From the NCBI GenBank assembly GCA_947601485.1, contig CANQGF010000001.1, positions 1 to 56,198 of the forward strand: a stretch of DNA of 56,198 nucleotides, read 5' to 3'. The position numbers and the translations under genes were made by a program. The stretch's first letter is position 1, and each line of letters begins with the position of its first letter. Under the pieces are notes generated by a model that made no database searches, was not told where the DNA came from, and saw only the letters and a program-made list of their open reading frames with translations. This document shows, one piece after another, positions 12,430-40,683 of this stretch. The DNA comes from an uncultured Bacilli bacterium. Lineage in GTDB: Bacteria; Bacillota_I; Bacilli_A; RF39; UBA660.

Positions 12430-13770
12430 ATGATTAGAGAATTCGACTATGAAAATTTACCAATCGTTGATATCGTTAATGAAATTCTTGTCGATGCAAT
12501 CAAAAAGAATGCTTCCGATATTCATTTTGACCCAACCGAAAAAGGTTTACGTATTAGAATGCGTATTGATGGTTTATTAGTTGATTATTCCAAAGCTCCT
12601 CCTAGTGTCCAAAAAAACATGATAACTCGTATTAAAATATTAGCTGGTATGAATATTACCGAATCTCGTCTTCCTCAAGATGGTGCTATCAAAAATGAAC
12701 TTGAAGGATATGATTTAGATTTACGTGTATCTTCTCTTCCTATTTCAGATGGTGAAAAAATAGTTATTCGTATCTTAGACTATACAATGAGCCTTAAAGG
12801 TTTAGATAAAATAGATTTTACCGAAGAAAATTTAGAATTAGTAAATAGTATGATTGCTACTCCTAATGGGATTATCCTTGTAACAGGAGCTACTGGTAGT
12901 GGTAAATCTACAACAGTTTACTCTATTTTACAAAGATTAAATAAGCCAGAAACTAATATTATTACTGTTGAAGACCCCGTCGAAATGAAAATTGAAGGAA
13001 TTAATCAAGTTCAAGTTATGTCAGAAATTGGTATGACTTTCGGTGCAGCTTTACGTAGTATTTTAAGACAAGACCCTAATATCATTATGATTGGCGAAAT
13101 TCGTGATGATGAAACTGCTCGTATAGCTGTTCGTGCTTCCATTACCGGTCACTTAGTATTATCTACTATCCATACCAATAACTCCTTAAATACAATTGAA
13201 AGACTTTTAGATATGGAAGTAGAAAGATATCTTTTGGGTTCGGCTTTAGAAGGTATTATTTCTCAAAGATTAGCACGTAGACTTTGTAATCATTGTAAAA
13301 AACCACAAAAAGCTACGGAATACGAAAAAAAAGTTATTAAAAAAGCAATTGGTATAGACGTTGATGAATTATATGTTCCTGTTGGCTGTGATGAGTGTAT
13401 CGGCGGCTACAAAGGTAGAATTGCAATTCATGAAGTTTTAAAAATTAATCAAGATATTAGAGATGCTATTACTTCTAATATATCAAAAAAAGATTTCCGC
13501 GTATTAGTTTATAGTAAAGCTGGTGTTTCTACTCTTTTACAAGATGGACTAAAAAAAGTAGTAGCTGGTGATACAAGTTTTGAAGAAATATTAAAATTAA
13601 TTGATATTAACGAAGACTACGTTGGTGAAGAAACAGATGACTTAAAAGCAACACTAATGGGTAAAGACCACAATTCACCTGTAAATGAAGAAGAAATAAT
13701 AGAAGCTCCTCAAGAAGAAACTAAAAAAGAAGAAAACAAAAAAGAAGATATTGAAGTTTTAGACCTTTAA
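12430..13770 (+). CDS. Type IV pilus / T2SS assembly ATPase (PilB/GspE/ComGA family)
   Basis: Walker A GATGSGKST, Asp/His boxes (IMIGEIRD, LVLSTIHTN), tetracysteine CNHC...CDEC. It has an acidic/Lys-rich C-terminal tail and lacks the long N-terminal GSPII domain. Confidence 0.9.
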   Translation: MIREFDYENLPIVDIVNEILVDAIKKNASDIHFDPTEKGLRIRMRIDGLLVDYSKAPPSVQKNMITRIKILAGMNITESRLPQDGAIKNELEGYDLDLRVSSLPISDGEKIVIRILDYTMSLKGLDKIDFTEENLELVNSMIATPNGIILVTGATGSGKSTTVYSILQRLNKPETNIITVEDPVEMKIEGINQVQVMSEIGMTFGAALRSILRQDPNIIMIGEIRDDETARIAVRASITGHLVLSTIHTNNSLNTIERLLDMEVERYLLGSALEGIISQRLARRLCNHCKKPQKATEYEKKVIKKAIGIDVDELYVPVGCDECIGGYKGRIAIHEVLKINQDIRDAITSNISKKDFRVLVYSKAGVSTLLQDGLKKVVAGDTSFEEILKLIDINEDYVGEETDDLKATLMGKDHNSPVNEEEIIEAPQEETKKEENKKEDIEVLDL

Positions 13771-13887: not shown

Positions 13888-15645
13888 TTATCCTACAATA
13901 AATGGATTATTTTGAGACCCATCACCAGAGGTGATTTGTGTATCAGCATTTAGATTGATAACTGGCAGAACGCCGTCCGCATTGCTGACGCGGCCGACGC
14001 TGCCGTCGCTGATGAACCCATTAATGCCACCGAACTCAACGGCGCCAGACGAGTTGGAATAACGAGGCGACATTGTCCACCACCAATAACTATGATATAG
14101 GTAATGACTTTCTGGAGCATTTCCATAATACGATATTCCTGCTAACATCATCTCATCAGTGGTTAATAATCCAATCTTTGTTTTATAATATCCTCCATAA
14201 GTTTCAGTAGTATCCGGACATGTTAAATCTGGAGTATTTTCAGTATATGTTCTATTATATGTACTATAATATGTATATCCATTATCTGTATTATTTATAG
14301 TTGTATCATTACAGAAATTACTTTCAGCAATTTTTTCATCATATTTGGCTAAGTTTTCTTTATACCAATCTTCTAAAGTTGTCTTTATTGTACTATTTGT
14401 TCCTCTATTATTTGTAAAAGAGTTTGTTCCTTTATCATATGTTGTAATACACGGATTAGATTTAGTACATGAAGTACCATTTTCATATGTAAATCCTACA
14501 TATTTTTGCCTATTACTACTTTCCCCATATGTATTAAACACTTTATTATCTTTTAATTTATCATTTAAAACTATCCTTATTGTTCCATCCCCATTTATAC
14601 GAACAATACGCCATATTTGATTTGCAAATTTTATATAATTATTTGGACTACCATTATATACATAAGTTGGTCCTTTTTCATCTTGCACTAAAATAATACT
14701 GCTAATGTAGTTTTCATTAGATTTCGGTACTCTATGTTCAGTTACTTTTGTTACTTTACTACACATACCATCTGGTTCTTCATAAGTAGTTTCGCTATTT
14801 TCAATCTTATATATTCCATAATTATCTATATCAAAAACATAGTAACCATCATACCCACTATAGTCTTCTACTTCAATTGGATTTTTTAATCTATATTTAC
14901 CATTATAAGTATCAAATTCATAGTCTAAAGATACATAACCTACATCACCTAAGTCAGGACATATACTATTAACATAAAAACTATTTAAATTATCATTATC
15001 AATAGTATCCTCATAAGCAACTACCTGGTTTTTATCTACTGGTTCTCCACTTAATCCTAATATAGCATTTGTTGCCTCAGTATTTATTCCTGCAACATTT
15101 TCAATAGTAATCTTAAAAGTAAAACTTTTATTTTCTCCATCTTGTTCAGATGTCTTTTCGTCCATCCAACTTCTTATTTGAACCGTCTTAGTTTGTTTTG
15201 GTCCTACTACTCCTGTTCCGATTATATATGATGCTGTATTATTGAAATTATCTATTTGTCTAGTATCTGTTGGTGTTGCATCAGATAGTAGTTTATAATC
15301 GTTATCTACTGCTACTTTTAAATGACTATCTGCTAATGTACTTCCTGTTTGTTTATTTAGTATTACATTATACGTTGATACTGTATCACATGTATTTGTG
15401 ATTTGTACTTCATATGCATCATTTTGCATACCTTGTTCATCTTTTTGAGGAAAACCGTTATCCATAGTTATTCCCTGTCCATTTGTTTCTGCGTAGCTTA
15501 TTTCAAAACAAGCATACGTATTTTTATTTATACCTGTTTGAGTGTGTGTTCTACTCCATATGGCATAAGTAAATGTTGTTATGGCGAGTATCAACATTAT
15601 TCCTATTATAGTTATTATTGTTATTTTACGTTTTCTTTCCTTCAT
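13888..15645 (-). CDS. Membrane-anchored surface protein (585 aa), paralog of 36675-38267
   Basis: The basic N-terminus plus a single TM segment ends in the conserved TYAIWS motif. The C-terminal module carries WRIVRINGDGTIRI, TTDEMMLAG, YWWWTMSP and VLPVINLNAD, a pattern seen in lectin-like Firmicute surface proteins. RBS GGAAGG. Confidence 0.85.
   Translation of the reverse strand: MKERKRKITIITIIGIMLILAITTFTYAIWSRTHTQTGINKNTYACFEISYAETNGQGITMDNGFPQKDEQGMQNDAYEVQITNTCDTVSTYNVILNKQTGSTLADSHLKVAVDNDYKLLSDATPTDTRQIDNFNNTASYIIGTGVVGPKQTKTVQIRSWMDEKTSEQDGENKSFTFKITIENVAGINTEATNAILGLSGEPVDKNQVVAYEDTIDNDNLNSFYVNSICPDLGDVGYVSLDYEFDTYNGKYRLKNPIEVEDYSGYDGYYVFDIDNYGIYKIENSETTYEEPDGMCSKVTKVTEHRVPKSNENYISSIILVQDEKGPTYVYNGSPNNYIKFANQIWRIVRINGDGTIRIVLNDKLKDNKVFNTYGESSNRQKYVGFTYENGTSCTKSNPCITTYDKGTNSFTNNRGTNSTIKTTLEDWYKENLAKYDEKIAESNFCNDTTINNTDNGYTYYSTYNRTYTENTPDLTCPDTTETYGGYYKTKIGLLTTDEMMLAGISYYGNAPESHYLYHSYWWWTMSPRYSNSSGAVEFGGINGFISDGSVGRVSNADGVLPVINLNADTQITSGDGSQNNPFIVG
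13962..14072 (-). other. GC-rich patch of C-ending (NNC) codons inside the 585-aa gene
   Basis: About 60% G+C by hand count, against an AT-rich gene. It encodes SPRYSNSSGAVEFGGINGFISDGSVGRVSNADGVLP and contains 11 consecutive C-ending codons (ttc atc agc gac ggc agc gtc ggc cgc gtc agc). Confidence 0.9.
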
Positions 15646-15680
15646 TACATTTATTCCTTCCTATCTTTACATCTAACTCC

Positions 15681-15708
15681 ATTATACCCCCCCCCGGTTC
15701 GTTGTAAA
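15681..15708 (-). promoter_or_regulatory. Promoter of the 585-aa gene with a G9 homopolymer in the spacer
   Basis: Minus strand: TTTACA (15708-15703), a 16-nt spacer acgaacc+GGGGGGGGG (G-run is the complement of 15687-15695), then TATAAT (15686-15681). Confidence 0.55.
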
Positions 15709-15738
15709 GCAGAAAGTTCGTGGTTGACATTTTTGCAT

Positions 15739-15763
15739 GAAAAAAAAGAAGATTGCTCTTCTT
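15739..15763 (-). terminator. Intrinsic terminator after the prepilin peptidase gene
   Basis: aagaag/cttctt hairpin overlapping the stop codon, followed by T8 on the minus strand. Confidence 0.6.
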
Positions 15764-16517
15764 ACAAATAAAATACTTCTAAGATATGATTTATTGGGCC
15801 AGTTAAGATAAAGACTATTAACAAAGCAGTAATTAGAAAGGGTCCTAAAGGCATTTCATCACCCTTATTTTTTAAAAGCACATAACAAGCATATGGTAAA
15901 GCGATAAAGGAAGATAAAATTAAAGCTACTAAACCTAATTTAAATCCTAAAACTGTTCCCATTATCATCGCTAGTTTAATATCTCCTCCCCCTAAAGATT
16001 CTCGTTTAAAGACCTTATCACCAAATAATTTAATTAAAATCATAACCCCCATCATTAAAAGACCAAAACCTAAGCCTAGTAAAACTTCCTTAAGTCCCCC
16101 ATTTAAATATTTAGTAATTAAAATTAATAATTCAAATATTACTAAAGGTCCATCTAAAATTATATAATATTTAAAATCACTAACAAAAATAATAATTAAT
16201 AAAGAAGAAATACATAACATTATTAAAGTATTATAACTAAATCCATAAATCTTAAAACTTAAAGCAAATAGGATACCTGATAAAGTTTCAATAAGGGGAT
16301 ACATTAATGATAATTTTTCTTCACATTTACGACATTTACCTTTTTGAATTATAAAGGAAATAATCGGAATTAATTCATACCACTTTAATTTATGTTGGCA
16401 ATATTCGCAATGCGAAGCAGGTCTTACAATCGATTGATTTAAAGGACGACGCATGCCAATTACGGTATAAAAGGAACCAAAGACAGCTCCTAAAATAAAT
16501 AAATATACATAAATCAT
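15762..16517 (-). CDS. Prepilin peptidase (A24 family, PilD/ComC-like)
   Basis: Zn-finger-like CEYC...CRKC, a multi-TM body, and a GGGDIKL catalytic Asp motif. Start moved to the ATG at 16517, 8 nt after AAGGAG. Confidence 0.88.
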   Translation of the reverse strand: MIYVYLFILGAVFGSFYTVIGMRRPLNQSIVRPASHCEYCQHKLKWYELIPIISFIIQKGKCRKCEEKLSLMYPLIETLSGILFALSFKIYGFSYNTLIMLCISSLLIIIFVSDFKYYIILDGPLVIFELLILITKYLNGGLKEVLLGLGFGLLMMGVMILIKLFGDKVFKRESLGGGDIKLAMIMGTVLGFKLGLVALILSSFIALPYACYVLLKNKGDEMPLGPFLITALLIVFILTGPINHILEVFYL

Positions 16518-16530
16518 AAAGTTGTACTCC

Positions 16531-18306
16531 TTACATAATATTGTTGTATAAGTCAAACATCGGGATTATAACAGCTAAAATAATTGCTCCAACTACAACG
16601 GCTAAAGATGTAATCATAATTGGTTCAATAAAGCTTTTTAAATTATTGACTATTCCCCTATGTTGTTCTTGATAATATTTACTAACATTTTCCATCATTG
16701 CTGCTAATTCCCCTGTCGATTCACCAGTTACAATCATGTAATAAGCAACATCAGGAATTGCCCAATGGTCTTTAAAAGATTCTGATATTTTCTCTCCTCT
16801 AGCAATATTAGTAATCGTATTATACATAATTTCCTTATATATTTCATTATTCGTTACTTTACTTAATATTTCAATACTTTCGGTAATAAAGACATTATTT
16901 TTAAGTAAGGAAGCAAAAGTTTTAGTAAATATTGTCATTTCATTATAAATCATAACTTTCCCAATAATCGGGACATGCATTAATAAAGTTTGCATATTCT
17001 TACGGAAAAATTTAACCTTTTTATAAGCTACAACTAATACTAAAATAATAGCAAAAGCAATTAGTAAAATCACCGAGATATTATTCTTCAAAAAATTACT
17101 AGCATCAATAATCGCTTTCGTAAAGCCATTTATAGTAACTCCGGCGGTATCATATACTTGAGTAAATTTAGGAATAACATACAATAAGATAAAAGTAATA
17201 ACAGCTCCTGAAAATATTGTAATAATAGCAGGATAAGTCATTGCACTAACCATTTGTTTACGTGTCGATTCTATCTCTCGATAATAATTAGCCATATCAT
17301 TTAAAGTTTCTTCTAATTCTCCTGTTGCCTCTGCGGCTTTTAACATATTAATTAAAAGAGAAGGAAAAACATTACCTTGTTTAGCTAAAGCATCACTAAA
17401 AGCTGCCCCCATAGTAAGTTCATAAATAATCTTTTCAAATACTCTTTTTCGATTTTTCTTTTTACCCATTTGATTAGATAAAATTTTAACAGAATCTGTT
17501 AAAGGAATACCCGATTTAACATACGTATATAATTGCGTAAGCCAAAAGATTAAATCCTTATTGCTCATCTTAGCTCCCCCAAAGCTAGGTTGACCATATA
17601 AGAAATTTATCATATTACTAGTTTTAATACTATAAACATCATAACCTTCATTAACTAAATACGCATTAACATCTAATTTAGAACTACCCGTAAAAGTTCC
17701 CGTTACCATTTTTCCTTTTGGGTCAATGGCTTTATAACGAAAGGCTACTGGTTTATCCGTTCTTTTAACATCACCACTAGCTAAGTCGCTAATTAAAATT
17801 TCTTTTTCAGCTTGTAATTTTCCATTTAACTGACGATTAAGTTTATTTTTTTCTTTTAAAGCTTTTTGTTCTTCTCGATGTTTCGCTTGACGTTCTTTCA
17901 TTATTTTACGACGGTCTTTTTTATTTATCATTACATTAGAATTACTAACTAGTTCATTACTCGTATCAGCAGCCAGTTCTTTAGGAACACTTTTTTTGGA
18001 AATCTGCTCATTAAGGGTCATCTTTTTTATCGTCTCAGCATCTAATTTACTTTTTGCTGTAGCCATTTCTGCTTCTTTTTTCGCTTTTTCTTCTCTTGAT
18101 TTTTTGGTTGCTTCTTGCATCATTTTCCCAGGTATAGTTCCAAAAATATATTTTAAGCCTTTTAAAGCATATAATAATATATTAGTTAATGGTTTACTTA
18201 AAAAAGAAAGAGTTGAAGTAATCCCTAAAATAGCCCATTTAAAAATACTAAATAAGCCAATAAATGGATATAAAATAAATGACGTTGATTTAGAAGATTT
18301 ATCCAT
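16531..18306 (-). CDS. PilC/GspF-family platform protein with a roughly 185-aa N-terminal extension
   Basis: The canonical PilC start (FRYKAIDPKGKMVTG...) appears only at about residue 189. The preceding part has a hydrophobic segment plus a Lys/Glu-rich coiled-coil-like region. Two T2SSF repeats follow. Confidence 0.88.
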   Translation of the reverse strand: MDKSSKSTSFILYPFIGLFSIFKWAILGITSTLSFLSKPLTNILLYALKGLKYIFGTIPGKMMQEATKKSREEKAKKEAEMATAKSKLDAETIKKMTLNEQISKKSVPKELAADTSNELVSNSNVMINKKDRRKIMKERQAKHREEQKALKEKNKLNRQLNGKLQAEKEILISDLASGDVKRTDKPVAFRYKAIDPKGKMVTGTFTGSSKLDVNAYLVNEGYDVYSIKTSNMINFLYGQPSFGGAKMSNKDLIFWLTQLYTYVKSGIPLTDSVKILSNQMGKKKNRKRVFEKIIYELTMGAAFSDALAKQGNVFPSLLINMLKAAEATGELEETLNDMANYYREIESTRKQMVSAMTYPAIITIFSGAVITFILLYVIPKFTQVYDTAGVTINGFTKAIIDASNFLKNNISVILLIAFAIILVLVVAYKKVKFFRKNMQTLLMHVPIIGKVMIYNEMTIFTKTFASLLKNNVFITESIEILSKVTNNEIYKEIMYNTITNIARGEKISESFKDHWAIPDVAYYMIVTGESTGELAAMMENVSKYYQEQHRGIVNNLKSFIEPIMITSLAVVVGAIILAVIIPMFDLYNNIM

Positions 18307-18413
18307 TTATAACTTCCACCTTTCTTATTCTTATCCATAATAAGTATAACATAGTTTATTAGTAAATTAAACTTTTTTAGGCCTCTTACATATAATTTAT
18401 TAGGTGAGGTTTT

Positions 18414-18707
18414 ATGTTTGGAAATAATTTTGGTGGTCCAATAATTAGAAGTAGTTTTACTCTACCCCGTATTTTAAATGGCCTTTCTAAAACTTTAGGC
18501 GTTGTAAATCAAGCTCTCCCTTTATATAGACAAGCTAAACCTATGATAAAAAAAGGTCAAACTTTATTTAAAATGGCCAAGGAAATGACTAAAACTTCTG
18601 TTTCTTCTAAACCTGTATCTAAACCTAAAACCCTAAATAATACAGAGCAAAAAAACATTTCTTTAAAAAGAAATGCTTCTTTAAATAAACCTATATTTTT
18701 TCAATAA
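18414..18707 (+). CDS. Small basic protein (97 aa), unknown (weak YqfQ/VrrA-like feel)
   Basis: ORF with RBS GGTGAGG. Only a loose motif resemblance, so the function is not supported. Confidence 0.55.
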   Translation: MFGNNFGGPIIRSSFTLPRILNGLSKTLGVVNQALPLYRQAKPMIKKGQTLFKMAKEMTKTSVSSKPVSKPKTLNNTEQKNISLKRNASLNKPIFFQ

Positions 18708-19121
18708 TTATTTGATAGTTTTCTTACTTTTAATAGCTAAGCCATAAATAAGTTCGACAACAAGTAAAACAGCACAGCCAATATTAACATATTTAACATA
18801 TTCTAGTTTGTCGCCGATAAGTTCAATCGCATTTACAGAACCCATAATATTAACAAATAACATTACGACAATACCTATAGAAATTAAAATATTCATAACT
18901 AAAACAGTAGTATTGCGCGTGTAGGCATTAATTAAAGCAATTAAACCATTAAAGATACTTAGAATTAATGGTAAATAAATCAAGAAACGATATATTGTAT
19001 CATTATCCTCCAAACGTACTATAACATTGCTAAAATCAACAACTGTTGGAATATATAACATAACATATACACCAATAGCAATAAGGCCGCAACCAACTAG
19101 TAAATTAATAATTGTTTTCAT
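18708..19121 (-). CDS. Integral membrane protein (137 aa, 4 TM helices)
   Basis: Hydrophobic ORF directly downstream of the TadC-like gene. RBS AGGAGG. Confidence 0.7.
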   Translation of the reverse strand: MKTIINLLVGCGLIAIGVYVMLYIPTVVDFSNVIVRLEDNDTIYRFLIYLPLILSIFNGLIALINAYTRNTTVLVMNILISIGIVVMLFVNIMGSVNAIELIGDKLEYVKYVNIGCAVLLVVELIYGLAIKSKKTIK

Positions 19122-19136
19122 AATTCCTCCTACTTT

Positions 19137-19832
19137 CTATTTTACCATATTTAAAAACATGGGTAATACAATAATTAAAACTAAAATAATACTAATAAAT
19201 AAAAACGACACTAATTTTACATATATTGGTAACTTATGCATTTTTTTCTGTTTCTCATAATGTTCTTGTTTCTTAATATATTCTAATTCCATTTTCACTG
19301 AATTAGTTATATTATTACCAAATTTATTAGTATTTATAATATTAATAATAATATTTTGGACCATTTCATTAGGTATTCTATTTTGAAAATCTTTTAAACA
19401 AGTATTTAAATCTTTACCAAGTTCTAAAGCTTGCAAGCTACCCTTTAAATCATAAGCTAATTCCCCCGCAACACTTTCACAAGCCTCTTCTAAAGCTTCT
19501 TTTAAACTATTGCCACTTTCTAATGCTAAAAGAACAGCTTCAAAAAAATATAAGGCTTCTTTCGCTATCGTCTTAGCTCTTTGCTTTAAAGGAATATCAA
19601 AACAAATATATTCCACTAAATAATAATATAATACAGTCATCACTGGTGAAGTAATATAACTAAAGGGAAAAATTACTAAACCTACCAGAAAAATACAAAT
19701 AGATGCAAGTAATCTTTTATTTAAAAAATTATAAATATCATAATTACTATCAAGACCTAATAAGTGAACTTTTCTTTTTAAACGATTAATAGTTTGAGGT
19801 AGATATAATTTTTTAATAATATCACTTTTCAT
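19137..19832 (-). CDS. TadC-like T2SSF-domain membrane protein
   Basis: Single T2SSF-type domain (ALESGNSLKEALEEA...LGKDL) flanked by TM helices. Its start overlaps the upstream gene by 4 nt. Confidence 0.75.
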   Translation of the reverse strand: MKSDIIKKLYLPQTINRLKRKVHLLGLDSNYDIYNFLNKRLLASICIFLVGLVIFPFSYITSPVMTVLYYYLVEYICFDIPLKQRAKTIAKEALYFFEAVLLALESGNSLKEALEEACESVAGELAYDLKGSLQALELGKDLNTCLKDFQNRIPNEMVQNIIINIINTNKFGNNITNSVKMELEYIKKQEHYEKQKKMHKLPIYVKLVSFLFISIILVLIIVLPMFLNMVK

Positions 19833-20830
19833 TTCTTACTACCTCCTAACAATTTTCTTATAACTAAATAATATAAGACATAAAGTAAAATAATAGTTAT
19901 TAGAACAAAAGGTCCAATCTTCATATCTTTTAAGATAGCAAAGTAATTTCTTTTCCATATTAGAAGGCCGATTATGACAAAAAGAGGTATTAACATAACT
20001 ATCTTAGTTAAGACTTTTAAAGGGGAAATAACTACTTTAGCTTCTTCCATCATATTTTGTTCATCTAAGAAATTTTTCTCGATAATATTAAATATTTGTC
20101 TTCCATCGCCACCCTCTTTATTTAAAAGACTTAAAGTAGTCCATATATATTTAAGTTCTGGTATTTTAATTCTTTCATAAAATCTAGCAAAAGCTTTTTC
20201 TAAAGAAAGACCATAAGCTAAATCTTCCGATACTTTCGCAAATTCTAAGCCAATCGCTCCCTTAAACTCTTTACTCACCATATTAATACTTTGATAAATG
20301 GTAAAACCAGATGCTAAAGCACTATTAATATAAATAATAGCTCGCAAAATTTCGCCTCTAACTGCTCTTTTCTTTTTTTGTAACTTTAAAATAAAGAAAA
20401 CATCAACACTATAAAAGCCTACTATAAAAGTTACAATTATACTTAGAAGACGCCATATATTAAGTGAATTAAAACTTGTAATAATATTTATAAAACATAG
20501 AAAAAAGGCTACTAATAATTTAATACTAATACAATCATAAGGACTAAATTTACTATCATATTCTAAATACTTTTCATATTTTAAAGCTAAATTAGGAAAA
20601 TAATTTTTCTTTTTTAATCTTTTAGCTAACTTATTAACGATATTATAAAGCCACGTAGCAAGACGTTCAAATAAAGAAAGTTCAGAGTCATAAGCTGAGG
20701 TAATAGCAAAATCGGTAATTCTTCTTTCAAACTTAATTGATTTGGAAGTTTCGTAGACATAAATAAAAGCTGTCAGTAAAACCATCCCAATAATTAAAGG
20801 AATAATTAAAATTTTCCATATTATATTCAT
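19829..20830 (-). CDS. TadB-like T2SSF-domain membrane protein
   Basis: T2SSF-type domain (INSALASGFTIYQSI...AYGLSLEKAF) plus TM helices. Confidence 0.75.
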   Translation of the reverse strand: MNIIWKILIIPLIIGMVLLTAFIYVYETSKSIKFERRITDFAITSAYDSELSLFERLATWLYNIVNKLAKRLKKKNYFPNLALKYEKYLEYDSKFSPYDCISIKLLVAFFLCFINIITSFNSLNIWRLLSIIVTFIVGFYSVDVFFILKLQKKKRAVRGEILRAIIYINSALASGFTIYQSINMVSKEFKGAIGLEFAKVSEDLAYGLSLEKAFARFYERIKIPELKYIWTTLSLLNKEGGDGRQIFNIIEKNFLDEQNMMEEAKVVISPLKVLTKIVMLIPLFVIIGLLIWKRNYFAILKDMKIGPFVLITIILLYVLYYLVIRKLLGGSKK

Positions 20831-20849
20831 GTTATGGCTCCTTTCTTTT

Positions 20850-22220
20850 TTATTTTTTTAGAAATGGTAAATCCATTTTCGTACTACTTGGGGCTTTTAA
20901 ATTAGAAAACATATCATCAACGGAAGTAATTCCTCTAACTTTTAATTTTTGATATACTTTCGGAACTTTTTCAATAAATTTATATTCTCCACTAACTTCC
21001 CCACTATCAGTTACTCCAAATTGATTAAAGACAAAAATATCATTTAATTGAATTTTATCATCGACAATTCCAGCAATTTCACATATTTTCGTAATTTTTC
21101 TTTTCCCATCACTTTGTCTTTCAATATGAATAACTAAATCAATAGCATTATTAATATATTCTCTAATAGCTTTAATAGGTATTTCAATTCCGGACATTAA
21201 AACCATTGTTTCAAGACGATTTAAAGCATCTTGAGCACTATTAGCATGCATCGTTGTAATTGAACCCTCATGCCCAGTATTCATGGCTTGTAACATATCA
21301 AAAGCTTCTTTTCCACGAATTTCCCCAACAATAATCCGGTCCGGACGCATACGTAAGGCATTAATAACTAAATCACGAATAGTTATTTCTTTATTTTTAT
21401 CATAATTACTGCTCTTTGTTTCTAAAGCAATAACATGGTCTTGTTTTAATCTTAACTCCGAAGCATCTTCAATTGTAATAATTCGTTCATTATTATCAAT
21501 AAAATCACTCAAAGTATTAAGTAATGAGGTTTTCCCAGAAGAAGAACCACCACTAATAATCATATTTAATTTACCCTTAATAGCTGCCTCTAGAAAACGA
21601 GCCATCCAAGGAGTTAAAGAACCCATCCTAATTAAATCTTCAATAGAAGAATTATTATTTTGAAACTTTCTAATAGTAATAACTGGTCCCTTCACAGCTA
21701 AAGGCGGAATAACAGCATTAATCCTCGCTCCATTTTCTAAACGAGAATCAACCATCGGATTAGTAGCATCAATAGTTTTTCCTAAAGGACTAATCATTTT
21801 TCTAATAGTCCTAATAATATGTTCATCATTAATAAAAGAAATACTTTCATCTTTAATAATCTGACCATTTATTTCAATATAAATTTCTTTTGGACTATTA
21901 ACCATTATTTCACTAATATTTTCATCTTCTAAAACTTCCGTTAAAGGTCCATAGCCATTAATTTCATTATCAATTAAATTATAAATATGATTACGTTCTA
22001 AATTAGTTAAATCATAACTGGCTATAACTTCTTCAATCTGAGCATTAATAAAATTCATATCCTTATCTTGAGGCATTTTCGTATCAATAATTTTTTCTAC
22101 TATCTTAGTTCTTAAAGCATCTAATAATTTCTTATCAGGAAAAATATCATAATCAGTCATTATTTGTTTTTTATAAGTTTTCTTCTTAATATTAAAAGCA
22201 TCTAATAAACTATCCTTCAT
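20850..22220 (-). CDS. CpaF/TadA-family secretion ATPase
   Basis: Walker [10 protein letters not shown] and [39 protein letters not shown], typical of CpaF/VirB11-like ATPases. Confidence 0.9.
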
Positions 22221-22983
22221 GTTCTTCCTCCTCTAAGATAAAATCACTAGCCATGGTCATAAAAGTTGTATACTCATTAGCAAACTTTCTTTCCACTTTA
22301 TCTTCTAGTAAAATTATCTTACCTGCCATTATATAATCATCGATATTACGAATATAAAACTTAGGTGATAAAGTATAATCTATATTAGCTTTTAAAATAT
22401 TTTTAATATCATATAAAGTAAAATAATTCTTAAAAGGATTAACAGCATTATTTAATAAAACTTTATAATTAGTTTTTCCTAAATCTCTAAAAATACTAAG
22501 TAAAGATTTTAAATTCTTAATATCAAAAGGGTCATTAGTCATCACAAATAAAATATTATCTACTCTTTCTAAAAGAGATAAATTAATTTCATTTATATTA
22601 TGATTAGTATCTATTAAAACCATATCATAAGCTAAAACAGCTCTATCTAAAATTAAATCAATATAACGCGCATCCAGGCGACCTGCTTGTCGAGGGTCTT
22701 TAGGACTTGCTAAAAAATCAATATAATCATTATATTTAGTGACATAATCATTTAAAGAATTATATTGGTTATTATCAATATCATCAGCTAAATTAACTAA
22801 ACTTTTTTCATAGTTTTTATTTAAAGCAACAGCAATAACTCCACTCGTTAAATCAAAATCAATTATTAAAGTTTTCTTCCCTAATTTGGCATAAGTTCCT
22901 GCTAAATTAATTAAAGTTGTAGTTTTCCCTACTCCTCCTTTAGCAGAAGTTATACATAAAGATTTACCAATTTTCTTTGCCAT
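22210..22983 (-). CDS. CpaE/TadZ-like ParA/MinD-family ATPase
   Basis: Deviant Walker A SAKGGVGKTT. It sits first in the Tad-like operon. Confidence 0.8.
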   Translation of the reverse strand: MAKKIGKSLCITSAKGGVGKTTTLINLAGTYAKLGKKTLIIDFDLTSGVIAVALNKNYEKSLVNLADDIDNNQYNSLNDYVTKYNDYIDFLASPKDPRQAGRLDARYIDLILDRAVLAYDMVLIDTNHNINEINLSLLERVDNILFVMTNDPFDIKNLKSLLSIFRDLGKTNYKVLLNNAVNPFKNYFTLYDIKNILKANIDYTLSPKFYIRNIDDYIMAGKIILLEDKVERKFANEYTTFMTMASDFILEEEEHEG

Positions 22984-25119: not shown

Positions 25120-26763
25120 TTACTTTTCTAATTTATCAATATAGGTATAATACCATAATTGAAAAATATAATAAGAAAATAAAACCTTTATTTCTTCTAA
25201 TGATAAACTATTATTTTTTAACTTGTTTAATAAATCTTGCATACTATTTATCTTAAACAATCTTTGGTTTTTCAAATCTTTTATTTGGGAATATTTTAAA
25301 ATATCATCTTTAAATACGGTATAAATCCAAATTTTTAAAGGTATACCAAACCCCTTCTTAGATTTATTTAACATATCTTGAGGAATATAATTATCCAAAA
25401 GTTTTTTTAAAATATATTTTTTATTGCGATGATTATATTTAAATTTATGATTTAGTTTTAAAGATGTCTCTACCAAATCATTATCTATAAAAGGATGAGT
25501 TACCGCTAAATCATAGTGAGTAGAAGATATATTTTGTTTTAAAAACAAACGATTAGCTAAAAAGGTTTGAATATCATTTAACATAAATTTTATCTGCGGT
25601 TTTAAATGTTTAGTAGATACAACACTATATCCATTAGGAATAACATCAATAATCTGTTTAACAACACTATCTCTACTTACACCCATACGATATATATTTT
25701 GAACATCTTGATAAGAATACTTTTCATTATTCATAAGACTATTAGAATATTTTAAAATGCCTTTCACTTTATTTTTAATGAAAAATGTATCATACACATT
25801 AGATCCACAAAATAATTGATCTGCTCCATCTCCAGAAACAAAAACATCAATATCTTCATTTTTAATTTTATCATTTAAAAATATAATAGGAATAATTGAA
25901 GGATCAGATAATAAATCAGCATAAAGAAAAGGTATTTTATGTGTAATAGCTAAAACTTTCTCTTCTTTTAAATAATATTCATGATGGCAAGTTTTTAAAT
26001 ATTGAGCTATTTCTTTAGCGTTAGTAGCTTCATTTCTCTCTTCATCAAAAAAGCCAACTGTATAAGTATTTAAATCATTTACATTTAATTTTTTTAATAA
26101 AGAAGAAATTAAAGTTGAATCAATCCCTGCTGATAAAAGAACACCAATTTTTTCTTTGTCTTTTATTCTAAGCTTTAAAGCATTTAAAAGTTTACTTTCT
26201 AATTCTTTTAATGCTTCCGATTCATTTTTAATTTTATTTTTATTTAAACAATATTCATTTTCAATATTATAATATTTATCTAATGTTACCTTTTTTTCAT
26301 AAATAAGAGCTGTTCCCGCTTGTAATTTATAAACATCTTCAAATATTGTATATGGTGCTTGAATATAATCATATACTAAAAAATTACTTAATTGCTGATG
26401 ACTTATCTTTAATTTTTTAGAATAAATTTTAATTATATTGGCTAAATTATTAGTACAGATAAATGTCCCTTTTTCTTGATAGTAATATAAATTTTTACTA
26501 CCTAACCCATCACGTACTAAAATAATTTGGCCATTTATTATTAAAATCAAAGCAAATTCACCATTTAATTTTTTGAATAGTTCTTGACCATAAATATTAT
26601 ATAATTTGAGTATTTTCTTTTCTAAAGATAATTTATTATTAAAATTATTTAAATCATCGAGATTATAAATATTTCCTATTAAAAAACAATAAGATTTATT
26701 TAAATCTTTCTTTTTATTATTAATATATAATTCTTTTTTATTTTTTACTATTGCAATTTCCAT
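25120..26763 (-). CDS. Asparagine-synthetase-like amidotransferase lacking the N-terminal Cys
   Basis: PP-loop SAGIDSTLISS and an AsnB-like C-terminal domain. The N-terminus is MEIAIV.. rather than MCG... ATG at 26763 follows GGGAGG. Confidence 0.8.
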   Translation of the reverse strand: MEIAIVKNKKELYINNKKKDLNKSYCFLIGNIYNLDDLNNFNNKLSLEKKILKLYNIYGQELFKKLNGEFALILIINGQIILVRDGLGSKNLYYYQEKGTFICTNNLANIIKIYSKKLKISHQQLSNFLVYDYIQAPYTIFEDVYKLQAGTALIYEKKVTLDKYYNIENEYCLNKNKIKNESEALKELESKLLNALKLRIKDKEKIGVLLSAGIDSTLISSLLKKLNVNDLNTYTVGFFDEERNEATNAKEIAQYLKTCHHEYYLKEEKVLAITHKIPFLYADLLSDPSIIPIIFLNDKIKNEDIDVFVSGDGADQLFCGSNVYDTFFIKNKVKGILKYSNSLMNNEKYSYQDVQNIYRMGVSRDSVVKQIIDVIPNGYSVVSTKHLKPQIKFMLNDIQTFLANRLFLKQNISSTHYDLAVTHPFIDNDLVETSLKLNHKFKYNHRNKKYILKKLLDNYIPQDMLNKSKKGFGIPLKIWIYTVFKDDILKYSQIKDLKNQRLFKINSMQDLLNKLKNNSLSLEEIKVLFSYYIFQLWYYTYIDKLEK

Positions 26764-26764
26764 T

Positions 26765-27853
26765 TTACCTCCCAAAAGTTTTAATTAAAAACTCCCATTT
26801 TTGAATTATTTTCTTTTTAGCATAAATATTTTTGACTTTAGCTGCTTCTTTAGCTAAACTTTTTCTTAAACTAGCATTTTCTAATACTTTTCTTAAAGCT
26901 TTTTCTAATTCTTTGACATTGTTTTTAGGAATAATAAGACCATTTTTCCCATTTTCAATTATAGTACCTATGGCTTTAGAAGAATTAGTAGAAATAACCG
27001 GTAAGGCTAAACTCATCGCTTCAATTAAAGCATTAGGCATACCTTCATAATTAGAGGGTAAAACAAAAACTTGAGCTTTGCAAATATGAGATCTAACATT
27101 ATTTGTATTTCCTTTTAAAATTACTCTATCTTCTAATTTTAATGAATTAATAAGTTTTTGGAGTTTAACCTTTTGACTTCCTTTGCCATATATTTCTAAT
27201 TTATAATGATTATAATCTTTGGGTAATTTAGAAAAAGCTTTAATTAATAGTTGAAAGTTTTTTTGTTTTTCTAATCTTCCGACACTAACAATTTTGTTTT
27301 CCCTTTTTTCTAAATGCTCATAATTTTCAAAATCTTCGGAAAGAAAATTAGGAATAAGATAAATTTTATTTGAAGAAATTCTTTTTAAATATTTAGCATA
27401 AGATTTATCTTGAATAATAAATCCATCTGCTTTTTGATAAAAATAATTTCTAATTATTTTTAAAAATCTAAACTCTTTTTGGGGATGATTACGAATAGCT
27501 ACCAATATTGGAATATTAAAAGATTTTTTTAAACTTAATCCTCTAATTGTTGGTTCTGGCAAGAAAGTAAAGATTAAATTAGGGCTTTCCTCTTTTATCA
27601 CCTCTTTTAATCTTTTACTTCTTGCTAAACTTAATTTAGTTTTTATTTTTTTTAATCCTTTTTCATTTTGTTTATTATCTTTATCTAAACATATATGTTT
27701 AATTTTTTTATTTAATTTGTATTCTGGTTTACTATTAATATTAGTAATAATAGTAATATCATATGTTTTAATAAATTCGTTAGCCAAATTGACAACCGTC
27801 TGCTCTGTTCCTCCCCTTGCTAAAGTCATTGTATAAAAGATAATTTTTTTCAT
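26765..27853 (-). CDS. Glycosyltransferase (GT4-like, GT-B fold)
   Basis: GGTEQ N-terminal motif and C-terminal EGMPNALIEAMSLALPVIST (E-x7-E type). Confidence 0.8.
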   Translation of the reverse strand: MKKIIFYTMTLARGGTEQTVVNLANEFIKTYDITIITNINSKPEYKLNKKIKHICLDKDNKQNEKGLKKIKTKLSLARSKRLKEVIKEESPNLIFTFLPEPTIRGLSLKKSFNIPILVAIRNHPQKEFRFLKIIRNYFYQKADGFIIQDKSYAKYLKRISSNKIYLIPNFLSEDFENYEHLEKRENKIVSVGRLEKQKNFQLLIKAFSKLPKDYNHYKLEIYGKGSQKVKLQKLINSLKLEDRVILKGNTNNVRSHICKAQVFVLPSNYEGMPNALIEAMSLALPVISTNSSKAIGTIIENGKNGLIIPKNNVKELEKALRKVLENASLRKSLAKEAAKVKNIYAKKKIIQKWEFLIKTFGR

Positions 27854-29550
27854 TTTAAACCTCGACATAACTTTTTATAAGTACTATTTTCTTCTAATAA
27901 TTTTTTATGTTTTCCTTTAGCTATTAAGTTACCATTTTCTAAAACCATTACTTTATCAGCAATTAAATTAAAATGAAAATCATGCGTAATCATAATAATT
28001 GTATAGTCTTTTTTTAATTTTAAAATAATATCTTCAATATCCTTCTTAGAAATAGGATCTAAATTATTAGTTACCTCATCAAGTAATATTACTTTGGAAT
28101 TAGATAGTAAAGCACGAGCTAAAGCTAATTTTTGTTTTTCTCCCCCACTTAAATTAGCGGCATCTTCATTAATAATAGTATCATAACCATCTTTTAAAGA
28201 ATTAATTTTAGCACTAAGGCCAACTAAAGCACAGACTTTCTTTATTTTATTAAAATCGTCATCAATTATAGCTAGATTATTTTTAATAGACATATTAAAA
28301 ATAAAAGGTTGTTGAGTTACTAAAGAGACACTTTCCCTAATACTTTCTTCTTTTAAACTATTAATATTATAATTATCTAAAAAAATACTTCCTTTTAAAA
28401 CATCATCAGTTTTAGTTATTAAAGAAAATAACGTAGATTTACCACTACCTGTATGACCAACTATTGTAACAAACTCCCCGGCTTTAATATGAAAATTAAT
28501 ATTCTTTAAATGAAATTTATCATGATAGGAAAAATAAACATTTTTAAAAGTAATATTACCTTGATAATCTTTCATTTCTAAATTACCAAACTTTTCTGTT
28601 TGGTAATCTAAAATAGTCATTATTCTTTGCAAAGATAGATTAAATTTACCAAAATGATTAATTAATTGAGCCATTTTATTTGAAAAAGTAAATACTCGAT
28701 TACGATACATAAATATCATAATAAATGTAGATGCTAATAATAAGTTATTTTTAATGAGTATTACCGATAATAAAAGCATTCCTCCTGTAGAGACTGTTTC
28801 TAAAAAACGCGTTAATTTATTTGTATAATCAATATACATTTGACTTTTATATTCTAAGGCCCCTATTTCTTCAAAGGAATTATCCGTCTTATTTTTAAAA
28901 TTATCTTTTAATTTTAAAACTTTAATATCTTTAGCACCTTTTATTACTTGACCTAACAAAGAAGCATTATAATCTAGTTTGTTTAAATTTTCTTCTTTAT
29001 AATATAAACTTTTTTTTATACCATAAAAATGAATTAACAACAACACTAGAGTACAAACAAAATAATAAAGACCAATTATTTTATTTAAATAAAATATAAC
29101 AAATAAAACACCAATATTACTGATAACTAAAACTAAACTATCTTTAATATAACCTAAATAAGTGGCAATATAATTGGAATCATCTTTGATTCGATTTAAA
29201 AATTTTCCTTGGCCTTCATCTTTTATAGTAGAAAGTTTTAAATTTAAAACGACATTACAAGCCTTTTTTCTTATTCCTAAAACTATTTTCTTTTGGAATA
29301 CTAAATAAGTTTTAGTTATAAGTAAATTACAAAAGAAAATACCCATTTCTAAAAAGCCGATTAAAAATACTAACAAAATAGAAGTTTTAAATTTACTTTC
29401 TAAAATATGATTGATAAGCATTCCTCCAATAGAAGGAGAAATGCTCGACATTACAGCAACAATTAAAGTAAAGATTAAAAGAACAATTAATTCTTTATGA
29501 CAATTTTTTAAAAATAAACGACATGATTTAATATTTTTCCAAAAACGCAT
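27850..29550 (-). CDS. ABC exporter, fused permease-ATPase (MsbA/PglK-like)
   Basis: Six TM helices in the N-terminal half. Walker A GHTGSGKST, signature LSGGEKQ, Walker B ILLDE. Confidence 0.88.
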   Translation of the reverse strand: MRFWKNIKSCRLFLKNCHKELIVLLIFTLIVAVMSSISPSIGGMLINHILESKFKTSILLVFLIGFLEMGIFFCNLLITKTYLVFQKKIVLGIRKKACNVVLNLKLSTIKDEGQGKFLNRIKDDSNYIATYLGYIKDSLVLVISNIGVLFVIFYLNKIIGLYYFVCTLVLLLIHFYGIKKSLYYKEENLNKLDYNASLLGQVIKGAKDIKVLKLKDNFKNKTDNSFEEIGALEYKSQMYIDYTNKLTRFLETVSTGGMLLLSVILIKNNLLLASTFIMIFMYRNRVFTFSNKMAQLINHFGKFNLSLQRIMTILDYQTEKFGNLEMKDYQGNITFKNVYFSYHDKFHLKNINFHIKAGEFVTIVGHTGSGKSTLFSLITKTDDVLKGSIFLDNYNINSLKEESIRESVSLVTQQPFIFNMSIKNNLAIIDDDFNKIKKVCALVGLSAKINSLKDGYDTIINEDAANLSGGEKQKLALARALLSNSKVILLDEVTNNLDPISKKDIEDIILKLKKDYTIIMITHDFHFNLIADKVMVLENGNLIAKGKHKKLLEENSTYKKLCRGLK

Positions 29551-29552
29551 AT

Positions 29553-30677
29553 TTACACCTCTTTACCTAAAAGTTGCTCATAAACTTTAACATACTCTTT
29601 TAAAATATTATTTATACTATATTCTAAGATAGCTGGTTGATTATTCTTGCCTAAAGTTTTAGCATAACTATAATTTTCTTTTAAATAATTTATTGCCGTT
29701 ATCAATGCTTTAGCATCATTAAGAGGAACAACTAAACCATTAACTTTATTGGTAATTAAATCACGATTTCCTCGGCAATCAGTAACTATTATTGGTTTTT
29801 CTTTATACATAGCTTCCATAATATTTAAAGGTAAACCTTCTTGTTTACTAACGGAAATTACTAAATCAGCAATATCCAATAAATTAGCAATATCAGGACG
29901 AAAGCCTAAAACTTTGACTCTATCTTCTAAATGAAACTTTTGAATATAACTATTGATATCAGAAGATAGATTAGATCGTCCTGCTAGTAATAATTTAATA
30001 TTTTTATCTTTAATTTGGGCCATAGTTTTAATAAGATATTTTTGTCTTTTTCGTTTTGATATTTCGGCAATATATAATATAACAAAATCATTTTTACTTA
30101 AGCCTAAATGCTGACGATATTGAAATTGTTCTTTTAAAGTTAATTTAGTTTTTAATCTGTTTTCATTAAATCCTATACCCTTTATATATTTAACAACTGT
30201 TTTAAAATGTTTTTGAGCAAATTTATAATCTTCTTCATTAATTGTAATTAAAACGTCAGTATATTTAATTAAATACCGTTCTACGGGATAATAAATTAAA
30301 TAATTTAACCAAGGACACCCTTTAAAAAAATGAAACCCATGCGCAGTATAAATTAATTTTGTCTGTTTTAATTTTATTGCTTTTGCCGAAGCTAAACGGG
30401 CGACAACTCCACCCATAGGAGTTGAGCAAGAAATTAAAGAATATTTTTCTTGAGCAATTACTTTGCGTAATTGCCAAATAGCTTTAATATTTTGCCAATG
30501 AAAAGGAGTTCTAGAAATAGGAATTTTAATTTTTTTAGTAGCATAAGGAAGTAAAAGGTCAGTATTATTAGCAAGATGTACTTCATAACCTTTTTTTTGA
30601 AAATATTCTAAATAAGCTAAATAGCATAATTCTAAATGAAAATCACTATTTGCTACAAAAAGAATTTTTTTCTTCAT
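29553..30677 (-). CDS. Glycosyltransferase (GT4-like)
   Basis: GT-B layout with SKQEGLPLNIMEAMYKEKPIIVTD. Confidence 0.8.
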   Translation of the reverse strand: MKKKILFVANSDFHLELCYLAYLEYFQKKGYEVHLANNTDLLLPYATKKIKIPISRTPFHWQNIKAIWQLRKVIAQEKYSLISCSTPMGGVVARLASAKAIKLKQTKLIYTAHGFHFFKGCPWLNYLIYYPVERYLIKYTDVLITINEEDYKFAQKHFKTVVKYIKGIGFNENRLKTKLTLKEQFQYRQHLGLSKNDFVILYIAEISKRKRQKYLIKTMAQIKDKNIKLLLAGRSNLSSDINSYIQKFHLEDRVKVLGFRPDIANLLDIADLVISVSKQEGLPLNIMEAMYKEKPIIVTDCRGNRDLITNKVNGLVVPLNDAKALITAINYLKENYSYAKTLGKNNQPAILEYSINNILKEYVKVYEQLLGKEV

Positions 30678-30685
30678 ACTTCCTC

Positions 30686-31825
30686 CTATATTTCTATTTC
30701 TCCATTAATATCACAAAAATAAATTTTAAATAAGCCCCGATATTCCGGATATACTTTTAAATATTCTTTAGTAAAACGTTTTTCTATTTCTTTTTCGTAT
30801 TGAGGGTCTATTAAAGCCATATAATAGCCCCTAAATCCTGCCCCAGAAAATCTTCCACCGTAAATGCCTTTCGTTTTTTGAGCAATTTTATGCAGTAATT
30901 CTAAAGGCTTTGAACCAGTTTGGTATTTTTTTATCGAAGAAGAACCCGAAGCAAAAATATATTTACCAAAATTTACTAAGTCCCCTTTTTCAAAATATTT
31001 AATTCCTTTAGTAACTCGTTTCATTTCTTCATAAAAATGTTCAGCCCGCAATACTTGTTGCGCAGGTAAATATTTTTGATATCTTTTAAAATTTTGATAT
31101 CTTATATTTCCTAAATAAGCATCATCATATTCAATTTCTTGATTTTTTAAAAAATTATTTAAAGAAAAGGCCGCACTTTTACACTCATCTACTCTAACAT
31201 TGTAAATAGTATCACTTAACTTTTTAGAAAGCCCTGAATAGACTAAACAAATTTTAAAATGCATTTTCTTTTGCGGTTTAATTAAATGATATTCTTGCTT
31301 TTTGATATCTAAATAAAGCAAACTATTTTTTTGACAATATATTTCACAAGCTGGGTCTAAAATACCCACCTTATTGTGCATATATTTACGTTCAACTTTT
31401 TGAACTAAATTAATAATTTTTTCTTTAGTTAATTGAATATTATTAACTTTGCATAAAGCACTTATATAAGAAATAATAATTGCTGAAGAAGAAGCTAAAC
31501 CACCCGTAGGAATTGACTTTTCAATATATGCTTTAATGCCCTGTTTTAAAAAATATTCTTCTTGTAAAACTTTAATACTCCCTACCAGATAATCAAGCCA
31601 AGAACCATCAAACTTTGGCAAAGAGGTATAATTAAATATTACTTTTTGAGCATAGTTTTCACAAATAATATTAAAATTACCATTTTTTAACGCTCTATAA
31701 TGCATTGTTATTCCATAATTAATAGCAAAACCCGTTACTTTGCCTAATTGATGATCAATATGAGCTCCTAAAGGACAAACCCGAAAAGGAACAAAAGATT
31801 TATATTCATATTTTAATTTTAGCAT
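30686..31825 (-). CDS. GHMP-family sugar kinase (galactokinase-like)
   Basis: N-terminal RVCPLGAHIDHQ, GHMP motif PTGGLASSSA, C-terminal RFSGAGFRG. Confidence 0.8.
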   Translation of the reverse strand: MLKLKYEYKSFVPFRVCPLGAHIDHQLGKVTGFAINYGITMHYRALKNGNFNIICENYAQKVIFNYTSLPKFDGSWLDYLVGSIKVLQEEYFLKQGIKAYIEKSIPTGGLASSSAIIISYISALCKVNNIQLTKEKIINLVQKVERKYMHNKVGILDPACEIYCQKNSLLYLDIKKQEYHLIKPQKKMHFKICLVYSGLSKKLSDTIYNVRVDECKSAAFSLNNFLKNQEIEYDDAYLGNIRYQNFKRYQKYLPAQQVLRAEHFYEEMKRVTKGIKYFEKGDLVNFGKYIFASGSSSIKKYQTGSKPLELLHKIAQKTKGIYGGRFSGAGFRGYYMALIDPQYEKEIEKRFTKEYLKVYPEYRGLFKIYFCDINGEIEI

Positions 31826-31855
31826 TACTATCCCTCTTTCATGATTAAGGAAAGA

Positions 31856-36602: not shown

Positions 36603-36640
36603 AATTTCACAACCAATTCTTTAACCCTTTTAATTTTTAA

Positions 36641-36672
36641 AGAAGCCAATGTTGCCATTGGCTTCTTTTTTT
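36641..36672 (-). terminator. Strong hairpin terminator after the 530-aa gene (bidirectional)
   Basis: agaagccaatg-ttgc-cattggcttct, flanked by A and T runs. Confidence 0.6.
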
Positions 36673-36674
36673 AA

Positions 36675-38267: not shown

Positions 38268-38432
38268 TACTTATCCATCCTATCTTTATAACTAATATAT
38301 CTTTAGTATTTCCATTTTCAGTTTATCATATACGCATTGCTTTTTGCAAGCTATAACTAGAGAATATTAACATATTTTAGAGATGTTATATTTTACCAGT
38401 TGTCTTTTTAAGAAAATATACTATAATAATAT

Positions 38433-38446
38433 TGAACAAACGTTTG
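38433..38446 (+). promoter_or_regulatory. Candidate LexA (Cheo/SOS) box
   Basis: tGAACaaacGTTTg lies between TATAAT (38422-38427) and the RBS GGAGG (38446-38450). The Firmicute consensus is CGAAC-N4-GTTCG. Confidence 0.5.
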
Positions 38447-38455
38447 GAGGATAAT

Positions 38456-40056: not shown

Positions 40057-40133
40057 GGGGAATTAGCTCAGCTGGCTAGAGCACCACGTTTGCACCGTGG
40101 GGGTCAAGGGTTCGAATCCCTTATTCTCCACCA
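40057..40133 (+). tRNA. tRNA-Ala (anticodon UGC)
   Basis: Acceptor ggggaat/attctcc with G3:U70, loop tt-TGC-ac, encoded CCA. Confidence 0.93.
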
Positions 40134-40211
40134 AATTGATATTAAACTCGAAACTCGAGTAAAAATATAAAACGACTTGTAGTAAAGTCGTTTTTATGTT
40201 ATGATGGATAT

Positions 40212-40402: not shown

Positions 40403-40462
40403 TATATCGCCTCCCTTCTTTAGAAGTTCGGCAATCACCCAACTATTAAATGTTCCTAATAA

Positions 40463-40673: not shown

Positions 40674-40683
40674 ACATAGTATA

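Follow-up and report, generated by a model that had tools for sequence, protein, structure and literature searches.

The window (the whole stretch of DNA analysed here, 56,198 nt) carries on its minus strand an ORF of 585 aa that lies between components of a type IV pilus gene set. The genes at this position are arranged as follows:

12430-13770: gene for a PilB/PilT-type ATPase, downstream of the 585-aa gene and convergent with it
13888-15645, minus strand: 585-aa ORF, encoding an N-terminal signal/anchor and a β-sandwich N-domain, with a variable middle part ahead of a DUF6273-like C-terminal domain
15762-16556, minus strand: pilD
16531-18306, minus strand: pilC, with a Tad-like gene set beyond it

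The short interval between pilD and the 585-aa ORF contains a predicted promoter and the elements associated with it, listed here from the pilD side towards the start codon (cassette types A and B and locus L005 are described below):

15740-15763, minus strand: weak hairpin AAGAAGA/TCTTCTT followed by T8, after the pilD stop codon
15709-15730, minus strand: conserved upstream part of the cassette, ATGTCAACCAcgAACTTTCTGC, at which homology with the paralogs starts in the alignment
15703-15708, minus strand: -35 hexamer TTTACA, matching TTGACA at five of six positions and unchanged in all 12 complete type A cassettes
15696-15702, minus strand: constant portion of the spacer, acgaacc (AYRAACC as the consensus of the family)
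15687-15695, minus strand: G9 homopolymer (C9 on the plus strand), the proposed slippage-prone element, which sets the spacer at 16 nt
15681-15686, minus strand: -10 hexamer TATAAT, which abuts the G9 tract and is invariant in the type A, type B and L005 cassettes
15646-15680, minus strand: leader of 35 nt, with the ribosome-binding site AGGAAGGA at 15655-15662

In a consensus scan, TTTACA-N16-TATAAT is the single good promoter predicted between pilD and the 585-aa ORF, matching the consensus at 11 of 12 positions and ranking as the best site within 15400-16000. The G9 tract lies 41 nt, and TATAAT 35 nt, before the ATG at 15645, and nine of the 16 spacer bases are G. Sequence and coordinates agree exactly with a preliminary description of this DNA, which had named the site as the only plausible promoter between pilD and the start of the gene. 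The tract had also been described there as the longest G/C homopolymer of the window and as improbable by chance in DNA this AT-rich. Both statements hold, as the window has a GC content of 26.3%, the next longest G/C homopolymers are two runs of six at 58-63 and 37381-37386, and dinucleotide-preserving shuffles yield 0.04 G9/C9 runs per window, with any such run in 3 of 100 shuffles. A tract so rare in shuffled DNA is unlikely to have arisen by chance.

The terminator that had been assigned to pilD stands in part: a 7-bp hairpin followed by T8 is present, but it is weak (-6.4 kcal/mol, z = -1.5) and was not called by the terminator scan. The same hairpin is also found ahead of the cassettes at L010:5946 and L011, and probably insulates the promoter from read-through. 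This hairpin and T-run upstream, together with the convergent neighbour downstream, mark the 585-aa gene on sequence grounds as an independent single-gene transcription unit.

An invertase-type switch was considered for this promoter and rejected: the search for inverted repeats around it gave no convincing flanking pair, and the large serine recombinase encoded in the window sits 27 kb off, in a mobile element. The latter is a probable integrative mobilisable element (40057-48267) that adjoins a tRNA gene (40057-40130) and contains the following genes:

42462-44162: large serine recombinase
45183-45779: HTH regulator
46972-48267: Mob_Pre relaxase

The 585-aa protein and its gene neighbourhood

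The 585-aa protein has no Pfam or NCBIfam match, and a sequence search of the PDB with the family profile returned no significant family. Its N-terminus consists of MKERKRK, a hydrophobic helix and a TFTYAIWS motif, and resembles SipW-dependent TasA/CalY signals; distant homologs match Peptidase_M73/camelysin and TIGR04088 in the same region. The first 45 residues contain no Cys, and the lipobox is therefore absent. Prediction gives conserved cysteines and β-rich domains, and an AlphaFold2 model built on a 43-sequence alignment reaches a mean pLDDT of 78. The top PDB match of the predicted β-sandwich N-domain is an archaeal bundling pilin (7ueg). The C-terminal domain is confidently modelled, and its top fold matches are phage DUF6273 proteins. 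On these models, the family is predicted to comprise secreted or surface proteins with a TasA/pilin-like N-domain, and the DUF6273-like C-terminal domain is presumably of the lectin type. TRF detects only short, low-scoring repeats in the ORF, and no in-frame tandem repeats at its 3' end that could serve size variation.

Two pilus/secretion sets lie side by side in this part of the window (12430-13770 and 15762-22983). The first, of the type IV pilus kind, comprises a PilB/T-like ATPase, PilD and PilC, and the second, which is Tad-like, two TadB/C-like T2SSF proteins, a CpaF-like ATPase and a CpaE/TadZ-like ParA ATPase; a pilin gene was recognised in neither. A functional tie between the 585-aa gene and the adjacent type IV pilus genes was considered and rejected. 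Its paralogs are dispersed and adjoin unrelated housekeeping genes, and the adjacency is thus incidental.

One paralog is located in the window itself (36675-38267, 530 aa), and its N-terminal third is 59% identical to that of the 585-aa protein. As had been noted at the outset, its upstream region is homologous at the 3' end, where the last ~30 nt of the leader are common to both genes, and contains no G run. This paralog is the first gene of a minus-strand glycosylation/polysaccharide operon (25120-38267), which also encodes a Wzy_C/O-antigen-ligase-like protein, DUF6020 and radical SAM proteins, three GT4 glycosyltransferases, a GHMP kinase, an ABC exporter and an asparagine synthase. It may be a glycosylated, constitutively expressed member of the family. 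A gene for a Y-family (DinB/IMS) DNA polymerase lies divergently beside it on the plus strand (38432-39706). Y-family polymerases promote frameshifts in homopolymer runs, and the neighbourhood of the two genes is probably a coincidence.

Poly-G cassettes in the rabbit-gut MAG and in other lineages

The closest homologs of the 585-aa protein are all encoded on contigs of one MAG from the rabbit gut, "uncultured Bacilli bacterium Lapin-007__bin15" (GCA_947594925.1), of which the window is very probably a further contig. The next best relative in other samples is 55% identical. Exact-protein look-ups for the 585-aa protein, for the neighbouring ATPase and for P0040 gave no record, and a scan of JGI metagenomes for the invariant leader gave 0 matches. 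Host markers in the MAG (SpoIIP, GPR, FemAB and LtaS) indicate a walled, spore-forming organism, which also encodes MutL.

The DNA examined amounts to 145.6 kb and comprises the window and loci L001-L011, among which L005 belongs to a different MAG and L011 to a separate ENA assembly. It contains 15 family genes by tblastn, to which locus L022 adds two. A run of G7-G9 abutting TATAAT precedes 14 of the 16 family genes whose upstream DNA is readable; two members are without a tract. Most of these runs belong to a cassette of ~90 nt, termed type A, which includes promoter, leader and signal peptide and is present in 12 complete copies (11 in the one rabbit-gut MAG and one in a separate assembly). 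Its layout is ATGTCAACCA..CTTTCTGCTTTACA-AYRAACC-Gn-TATAAT-35 nt-ATG, followed by the conserved signal peptide and N-domain. Homology begins ~35 nt upstream of the tract, right after a terminator-like hairpin and T-run that differ by locus. Two diverged cassettes of the MAG (L001 and L002), termed type B, have the arrangement TTGCAA-10 nt-G9-TATAAT. On this sequence comparison, one and the same cassette of promoter, leader, signal peptide and N-domain heads at least 13 paralogs, which are dispersed over the genome and each have a tract length of their own.

Conservation of the type A cassette is high on both sides of the tract. Between TATAAT and the position 10 nt past the ATG, 49 of 51 nt are invariant among the 12 copies, and when 87 nt are compared on fixed flanks, length changes occur solely in the tract and the adjacent C. 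The tract itself is G7 in three copies, G8 in five and G9 in four. In seven pairs of cassettes the flanks differ at no more than 2 of 87 positions, yet the tracts are of unequal length. The resulting spacers measure 13-16 nt, and none is at the 17-nt optimum.

These tract lengths derive from short-read metagenome assemblies of a repeated cassette, and the contigs themselves carry its imprint. Three MAG contigs begin 69 nt ahead of a tract and one stops within a tract; overall, breaks at the tract or at the conserved N-domain are found at L006:1, L007:1, L009:1, L022:11826, L008:1 and L004:4512. Such breaks are the expected behaviour of a repeated, length-ambiguous element in short-read assembly, and they imply that the family is larger than the copies counted.

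Tracts in the same position precede homologous genes elsewhere. The second rabbit MAG (L005) has TTGACA-9 nt-G10-TATAAT ahead of a homolog of 804 aa. A profile-guided scan of public metagenome contigs provided 79 loci (340 kb), in which there are seven G runs of at least 7, each of them with a -35-like hexamer before it and a -10-like hexamer after it, a short way ahead of a family homolog. At L030 the sequence is TTGACA-10-G9-TATCAT. Together, 23 of 23 G runs of at least 7 in ~550 kb of fetched DNA occur in this promoter context, and runs of G9-G11 lie between the -35 and -10 of homologous genes in four other lineages with unrelated flanks. The tract is absent from human-gut relatives (P0025; 10 loci, L012-L021) and from a Logan contig (P0023; L023), and is thus lineage-specific and recurrent rather than universal in the protein family.

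In two related lineages, loci that are near-identical and apparently orthologous differ by a single G from one sample to another. L047 has G9 and L049 G10 within nearly identical flanks, and L063 has G9 against G10 in L050 and L073, which are near-identical loci. L055 has G11, reached via a T>G change beside the tract, and its promoter (TTGACA-17-TATAAT) matches the consensus at 12 of 12 positions in the scan. Read in the same register, the spacers of L050 and L073 are 17 nt and that of L063 is 16 nt. A reading of the -10 of the L050 group as TATATA, with a spacer of 15, was rejected, since the scan places TATACT/TATAAT one position downstream and gives a spacer of 17 nt. By these hexamer assignments, the majority allele of the L050 group would be at optimum spacing and the allele shorter by one G at 16 nt. 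Three other cassette types have spacers of 19 nt.

The leader at L047 (250-300), and likewise at L049, has a further feature. The distance from the poly-G promoter to the ATG is ~120 nt here, and within it a perfect hairpin, AACTAGTT-tatt-AACTAGTT, precedes T6; the two together may be a leader attenuator or a terminator.

Variable regions and template repeats

The preliminary description had pointed to a GC-rich patch within the 585-aa gene. The patch is indeed present, and can now be further identified. It has a GC content of 51-53% in 150-nt windows across 13900-14124, and its best 100-nt window is 62% GC and 15% A. Three adenine-rich template-repeat (TR) copies sit 120-180 nt downstream of sister genes in the MAG:

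13962-14072, minus strand: DGR variable region (VR), corresponding to the patch rich in GC and poor in adenine towards the 3' end of the 585-aa ORF
L001:5869-5970: TR copy
L002:5926-6028: TR copy
L007:1929-2030: TR copy

The VR encodes residues ~525-561 of the 585. Compared with the TR of L001, it has 22 substitutions, of which 21 lie at adenines of the template (A>G 15, A>T 5, A>C 1), and the VR/TR pair of L001 itself has 14 of 14 differences at adenines. Substitutions confined to template adenines are the DGR signature, by which the window patch is identified as a DGR variable region. The window VR and the L001 TR also differ in length by 9 nt, and the cognate template is therefore probably another copy outside the fetched loci. 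The window contains no TR, a motif search of the window and the fetched MAG loci gave no reverse transcriptase (RT), and there is no RT or Avd gene next to the TR copies of L001, L002 and L007. Going by its sequence, the 585-aa gene has the features of a DGR target, cognate TR and RT excepted. The adenine-depleted VR signature is present in about half of the paralogs and absent from the two tract-less paralogs. A fold search of the PDB returned no direct match to a solved DGR target. Three points were thus missing from the preliminary description, namely that the gene belongs to a large cassette-sharing family, that its GC-rich patch is a DGR variable region and that the pil adjacency is incidental.

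In the lineage of L055 and L073, poly-G promoter, target gene with VR, TR and RT are found together as a complete DGR arrangement. The cassette at L055 is organized as follows:

L055:1217-5869: whole cassette, with G11 in the promoter (G10 in L073, which has the same layout)
3230-3353: VR of the target gene, which encodes 714 aa
3697-3821: TR, with 20 of 20 VR/TR mismatches at A
4016-4043: terminator-like hairpin, followed by two small ORFs
4760-5869: RT (RVT_1, 2e-14; motifs IGNMTSQ and YMDD)

At L007 (2385-2900), downstream of the TR, the 5' end of a small ORF (148 aa), whose N-terminus "ATFAYFTAS" is TasA-like, is directly duplicated together with its upstream region, over ~300 nt.

Promoter spacing as a candidate switch

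The reading favoured here, with a probability of roughly three in four, is that the promoter is a contingency (phase-variable) one, with the G9 run as its mutable element. During replication, the run would gain or lose one G through slipped-strand mispairing, giving a spacer of 15 nt with G8, 16 nt with G9 and 17 nt with G10. The -35 hexamer would be rotated and displaced relative to the -10, and initiation by the housekeeping sigma factor, modulated by the spacing, would drive transcription up or down. G10 would be fully ON, G9 intermediate or ON, and G8 and G7 OFF, going by spacers of 14, 15 and 16 nt here and of 16 and 17 nt in the L050 group. That TATAAT is the active -10, and that switching proceeds at an appreciable rate, is what we infer. 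Each cell would then display a stochastic subset of the family.

A slipped-strand spacing switch had already been proposed in the preliminary description, and three comparative lines (paralogs, other lineages and samples) now argue for it. The tract recurs, its length varies between paralogs and in related lineages, length changes in the type A cassette are confined to the tract and the adjacent C, single-G polymorphism exists between samples, and lineages other than that of the window possess the same arrangement. G/C runs of at least 9 within 200 bp of the ATG have been used as an operational criterion for transcriptionally phase-variable genes (PMC5953494). The window tract has nine bases, has TTTACA on one side and TATAAT on the other, and is less than 200 bp from the start codon of a gene whose product is predicted to be at the surface or secreted; the G7 and G8 tracts of the sister genes are below this cut-off. 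Switches of this type usually control surface or secreted structures, or restriction-modification systems, and a hypervariable surface protein would be a typical product. A G7 tract switches at <1e-5 in Neisseria (PMC5953494). With G7-G9 at the low end of mutability, and MutL encoded, switching may be slow. With all type A copies short of 17 nt and three cassette types at 19 nt, it may be that the majority genotype has most loci OFF, or else that the geometry of the G-tract shifts the optimum. Majority-OFF loci are normal for large contingency families.

A different explanation, which we regard as unlikely, is that the run is a fixed promoter element, acting as the rigid GC-rich spacer of a weak promoter or as the binding site of a family regulator, and that its lengths reflect slow neutral drift. 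A sequence-specific role would suit a tract that is always on the sense strand and usually abuts the -10, and most copies being off the 17-nt optimum, as well as the presence of MutL, would agree with a static element. An inert homopolymer also has a precedent in vpma of Mycoplasma agalactiae, in which a poly-T immediately upstream of the -10 plays no switching role and Xer1 inversion does the switching (PMC2268961). In both cases the promoter of a variable surface protein has a homopolymer directly ahead of its -10, and the inertness of the poly-T means that tract position alone is no proof of function. They differ in that tract length varies here between copies and samples. A binding or structural site should hold its length, whereas the tract and the adjacent C alone vary in the 87 nt compared, and length differs between samples at near-identical loci. 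Moreover, four lineages with unrelated flanks share only the poly-G between -35 and -10, and a weak promoter needs no homopolymer in a genome of 26% GC.

A far less probable origin of the tract, or of its length variation, is an error in sequencing or assembly, by way of two-colour poly-G or mis-threading of the repeated cassette. The data are short-read metagenome assemblies, and the three contigs that start 69 nt upstream of a tract and the one that ends inside a tract would fit such an origin. Artefactual poly-G, however, falls at the ends of reads or contigs and not precisely between -35 and -10, and the window tract is internal to a 56-kb contig with unique flanks. The same functional position recurs in independent assemblies from several projects and assemblers, and even if lengths had been swapped among paralogs, the reads must contain three lengths. 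A functionless chance homopolymer, which the 3 of 100 shuffles with a G9/C9 run might admit, is effectively refuted by the recurrence of the tract, with all 23 G runs of at least 7 in the ~550 kb at the same promoter position of one gene family, lineages with unrelated flanks included.

A contingency promoter of the kind favoured here has its closest counterparts in mycoplasmas and Neisseria. In mycoplasmas, vlp, maa2 and vmm are switched by changes in a homopolymer or dinucleotide repeat between the -35 and the -10 (PMC2268961). [quoted passage not shown] Work by Citti and Wise from 1995 reportedly described in Vlp a conserved 5' cassette of promoter, leader and signal peptide, divergent mature regions, independent switching and combinatorial display. 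Several traits separate the two systems. The Vlp tract is poly-A or TA, whereas here it is poly-G; the host there is a mollicute, here a walled, spore-forming gut Bacilli; and the Vlp genes encode lipoproteins and are clustered, in contrast to dispersed genes with no lipobox Cys and a SipW/TasA-like motif. Finally, Vlp proteins have C-terminal tandem repeats, in place of which the present family has a DGR variable region. The 585-aa family is not a member of the Vlp family.

In Neisseria meningitidis, porA (poly-G) and opc (poly-C) have spacer tracts in which one-base changes lead to graded or on/off expression. A third gene of this species, fetA, has an intergenic tract of C10-14 (PMC5953494). 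These genes and the present family have in common a G/C homopolymer (~9-14 in Neisseria) between the -35 and -10 of a surface-protein gene. They are single-copy outer-membrane genes of a Gram-negative pathogen, unlike the at least 14 paralogs of an uncultured commensal Firmicute, in which the tracts are shorter (7-11).

The DGR component has parallels in Mtd of Bordetella phage, TvpA of Treponema denticola and phage targets of the DUF6273 type. As in these, the VR is at the 3' end and its differences from the TR are confined to adenines; the fold of the C-terminal domain matches phage DUF6273 proteins, and a related lineage has the cassette of target, TR and RT. The present family differs in its TasA/SipW-type N-terminus, its many paralogous targets, the several TR copies without an adjacent RT and the poly-G promoter tracts on the target genes.

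With the odds evenly balanced in our judgement, the two components may constitute a two-layer system, in which a poly-G promoter gates each of at least 14 dispersed TasA-like/DUF6273 paralogs and the DGR rewrites the binding tips of about half of them. The poly-G switch would vary display and the DGR binding specificity, each independently of the other. Where a TR lies directly downstream of a switched gene (L001, L002, L007 and L055), the switch might also gate synthesis of the template RNA. This extension is distinctly doubtful; if true, hypermutation itself would be phase-variable.

The switch mechanism is of a known kind, and its setting appears to be undescribed. What appears to be new is that, in an uncultured gut commensal, a dispersed family of DGR-linked surface proteins with at least 14 members is headed by a conserved poly-G cassette. 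A literature search, with incomplete journal coverage, gave no description of poly-G promoter families in gut Bacilli, or of DGR targets that are phase-variable or have repeat-controlled promoters. Among the known switches of gut commensals, invertible promoters of Bacteroidales predominate. Whether phase variation at many loci is truly restricted to pathogens, or whether this reflects database bias, is a question raised in a recent review (PMC11868660). The family described here would represent a non-pathogenic gut Firmicute with a dozen or more repeat-controlled promoters on one family, a number comparable to the repertoires of classical pathogens. As the controlled genes are DGR targets, the locus would join the two best-known programmed mechanisms of bacterial diversification, and may offer a natural model for commensal surface variation against host IgA or phages.
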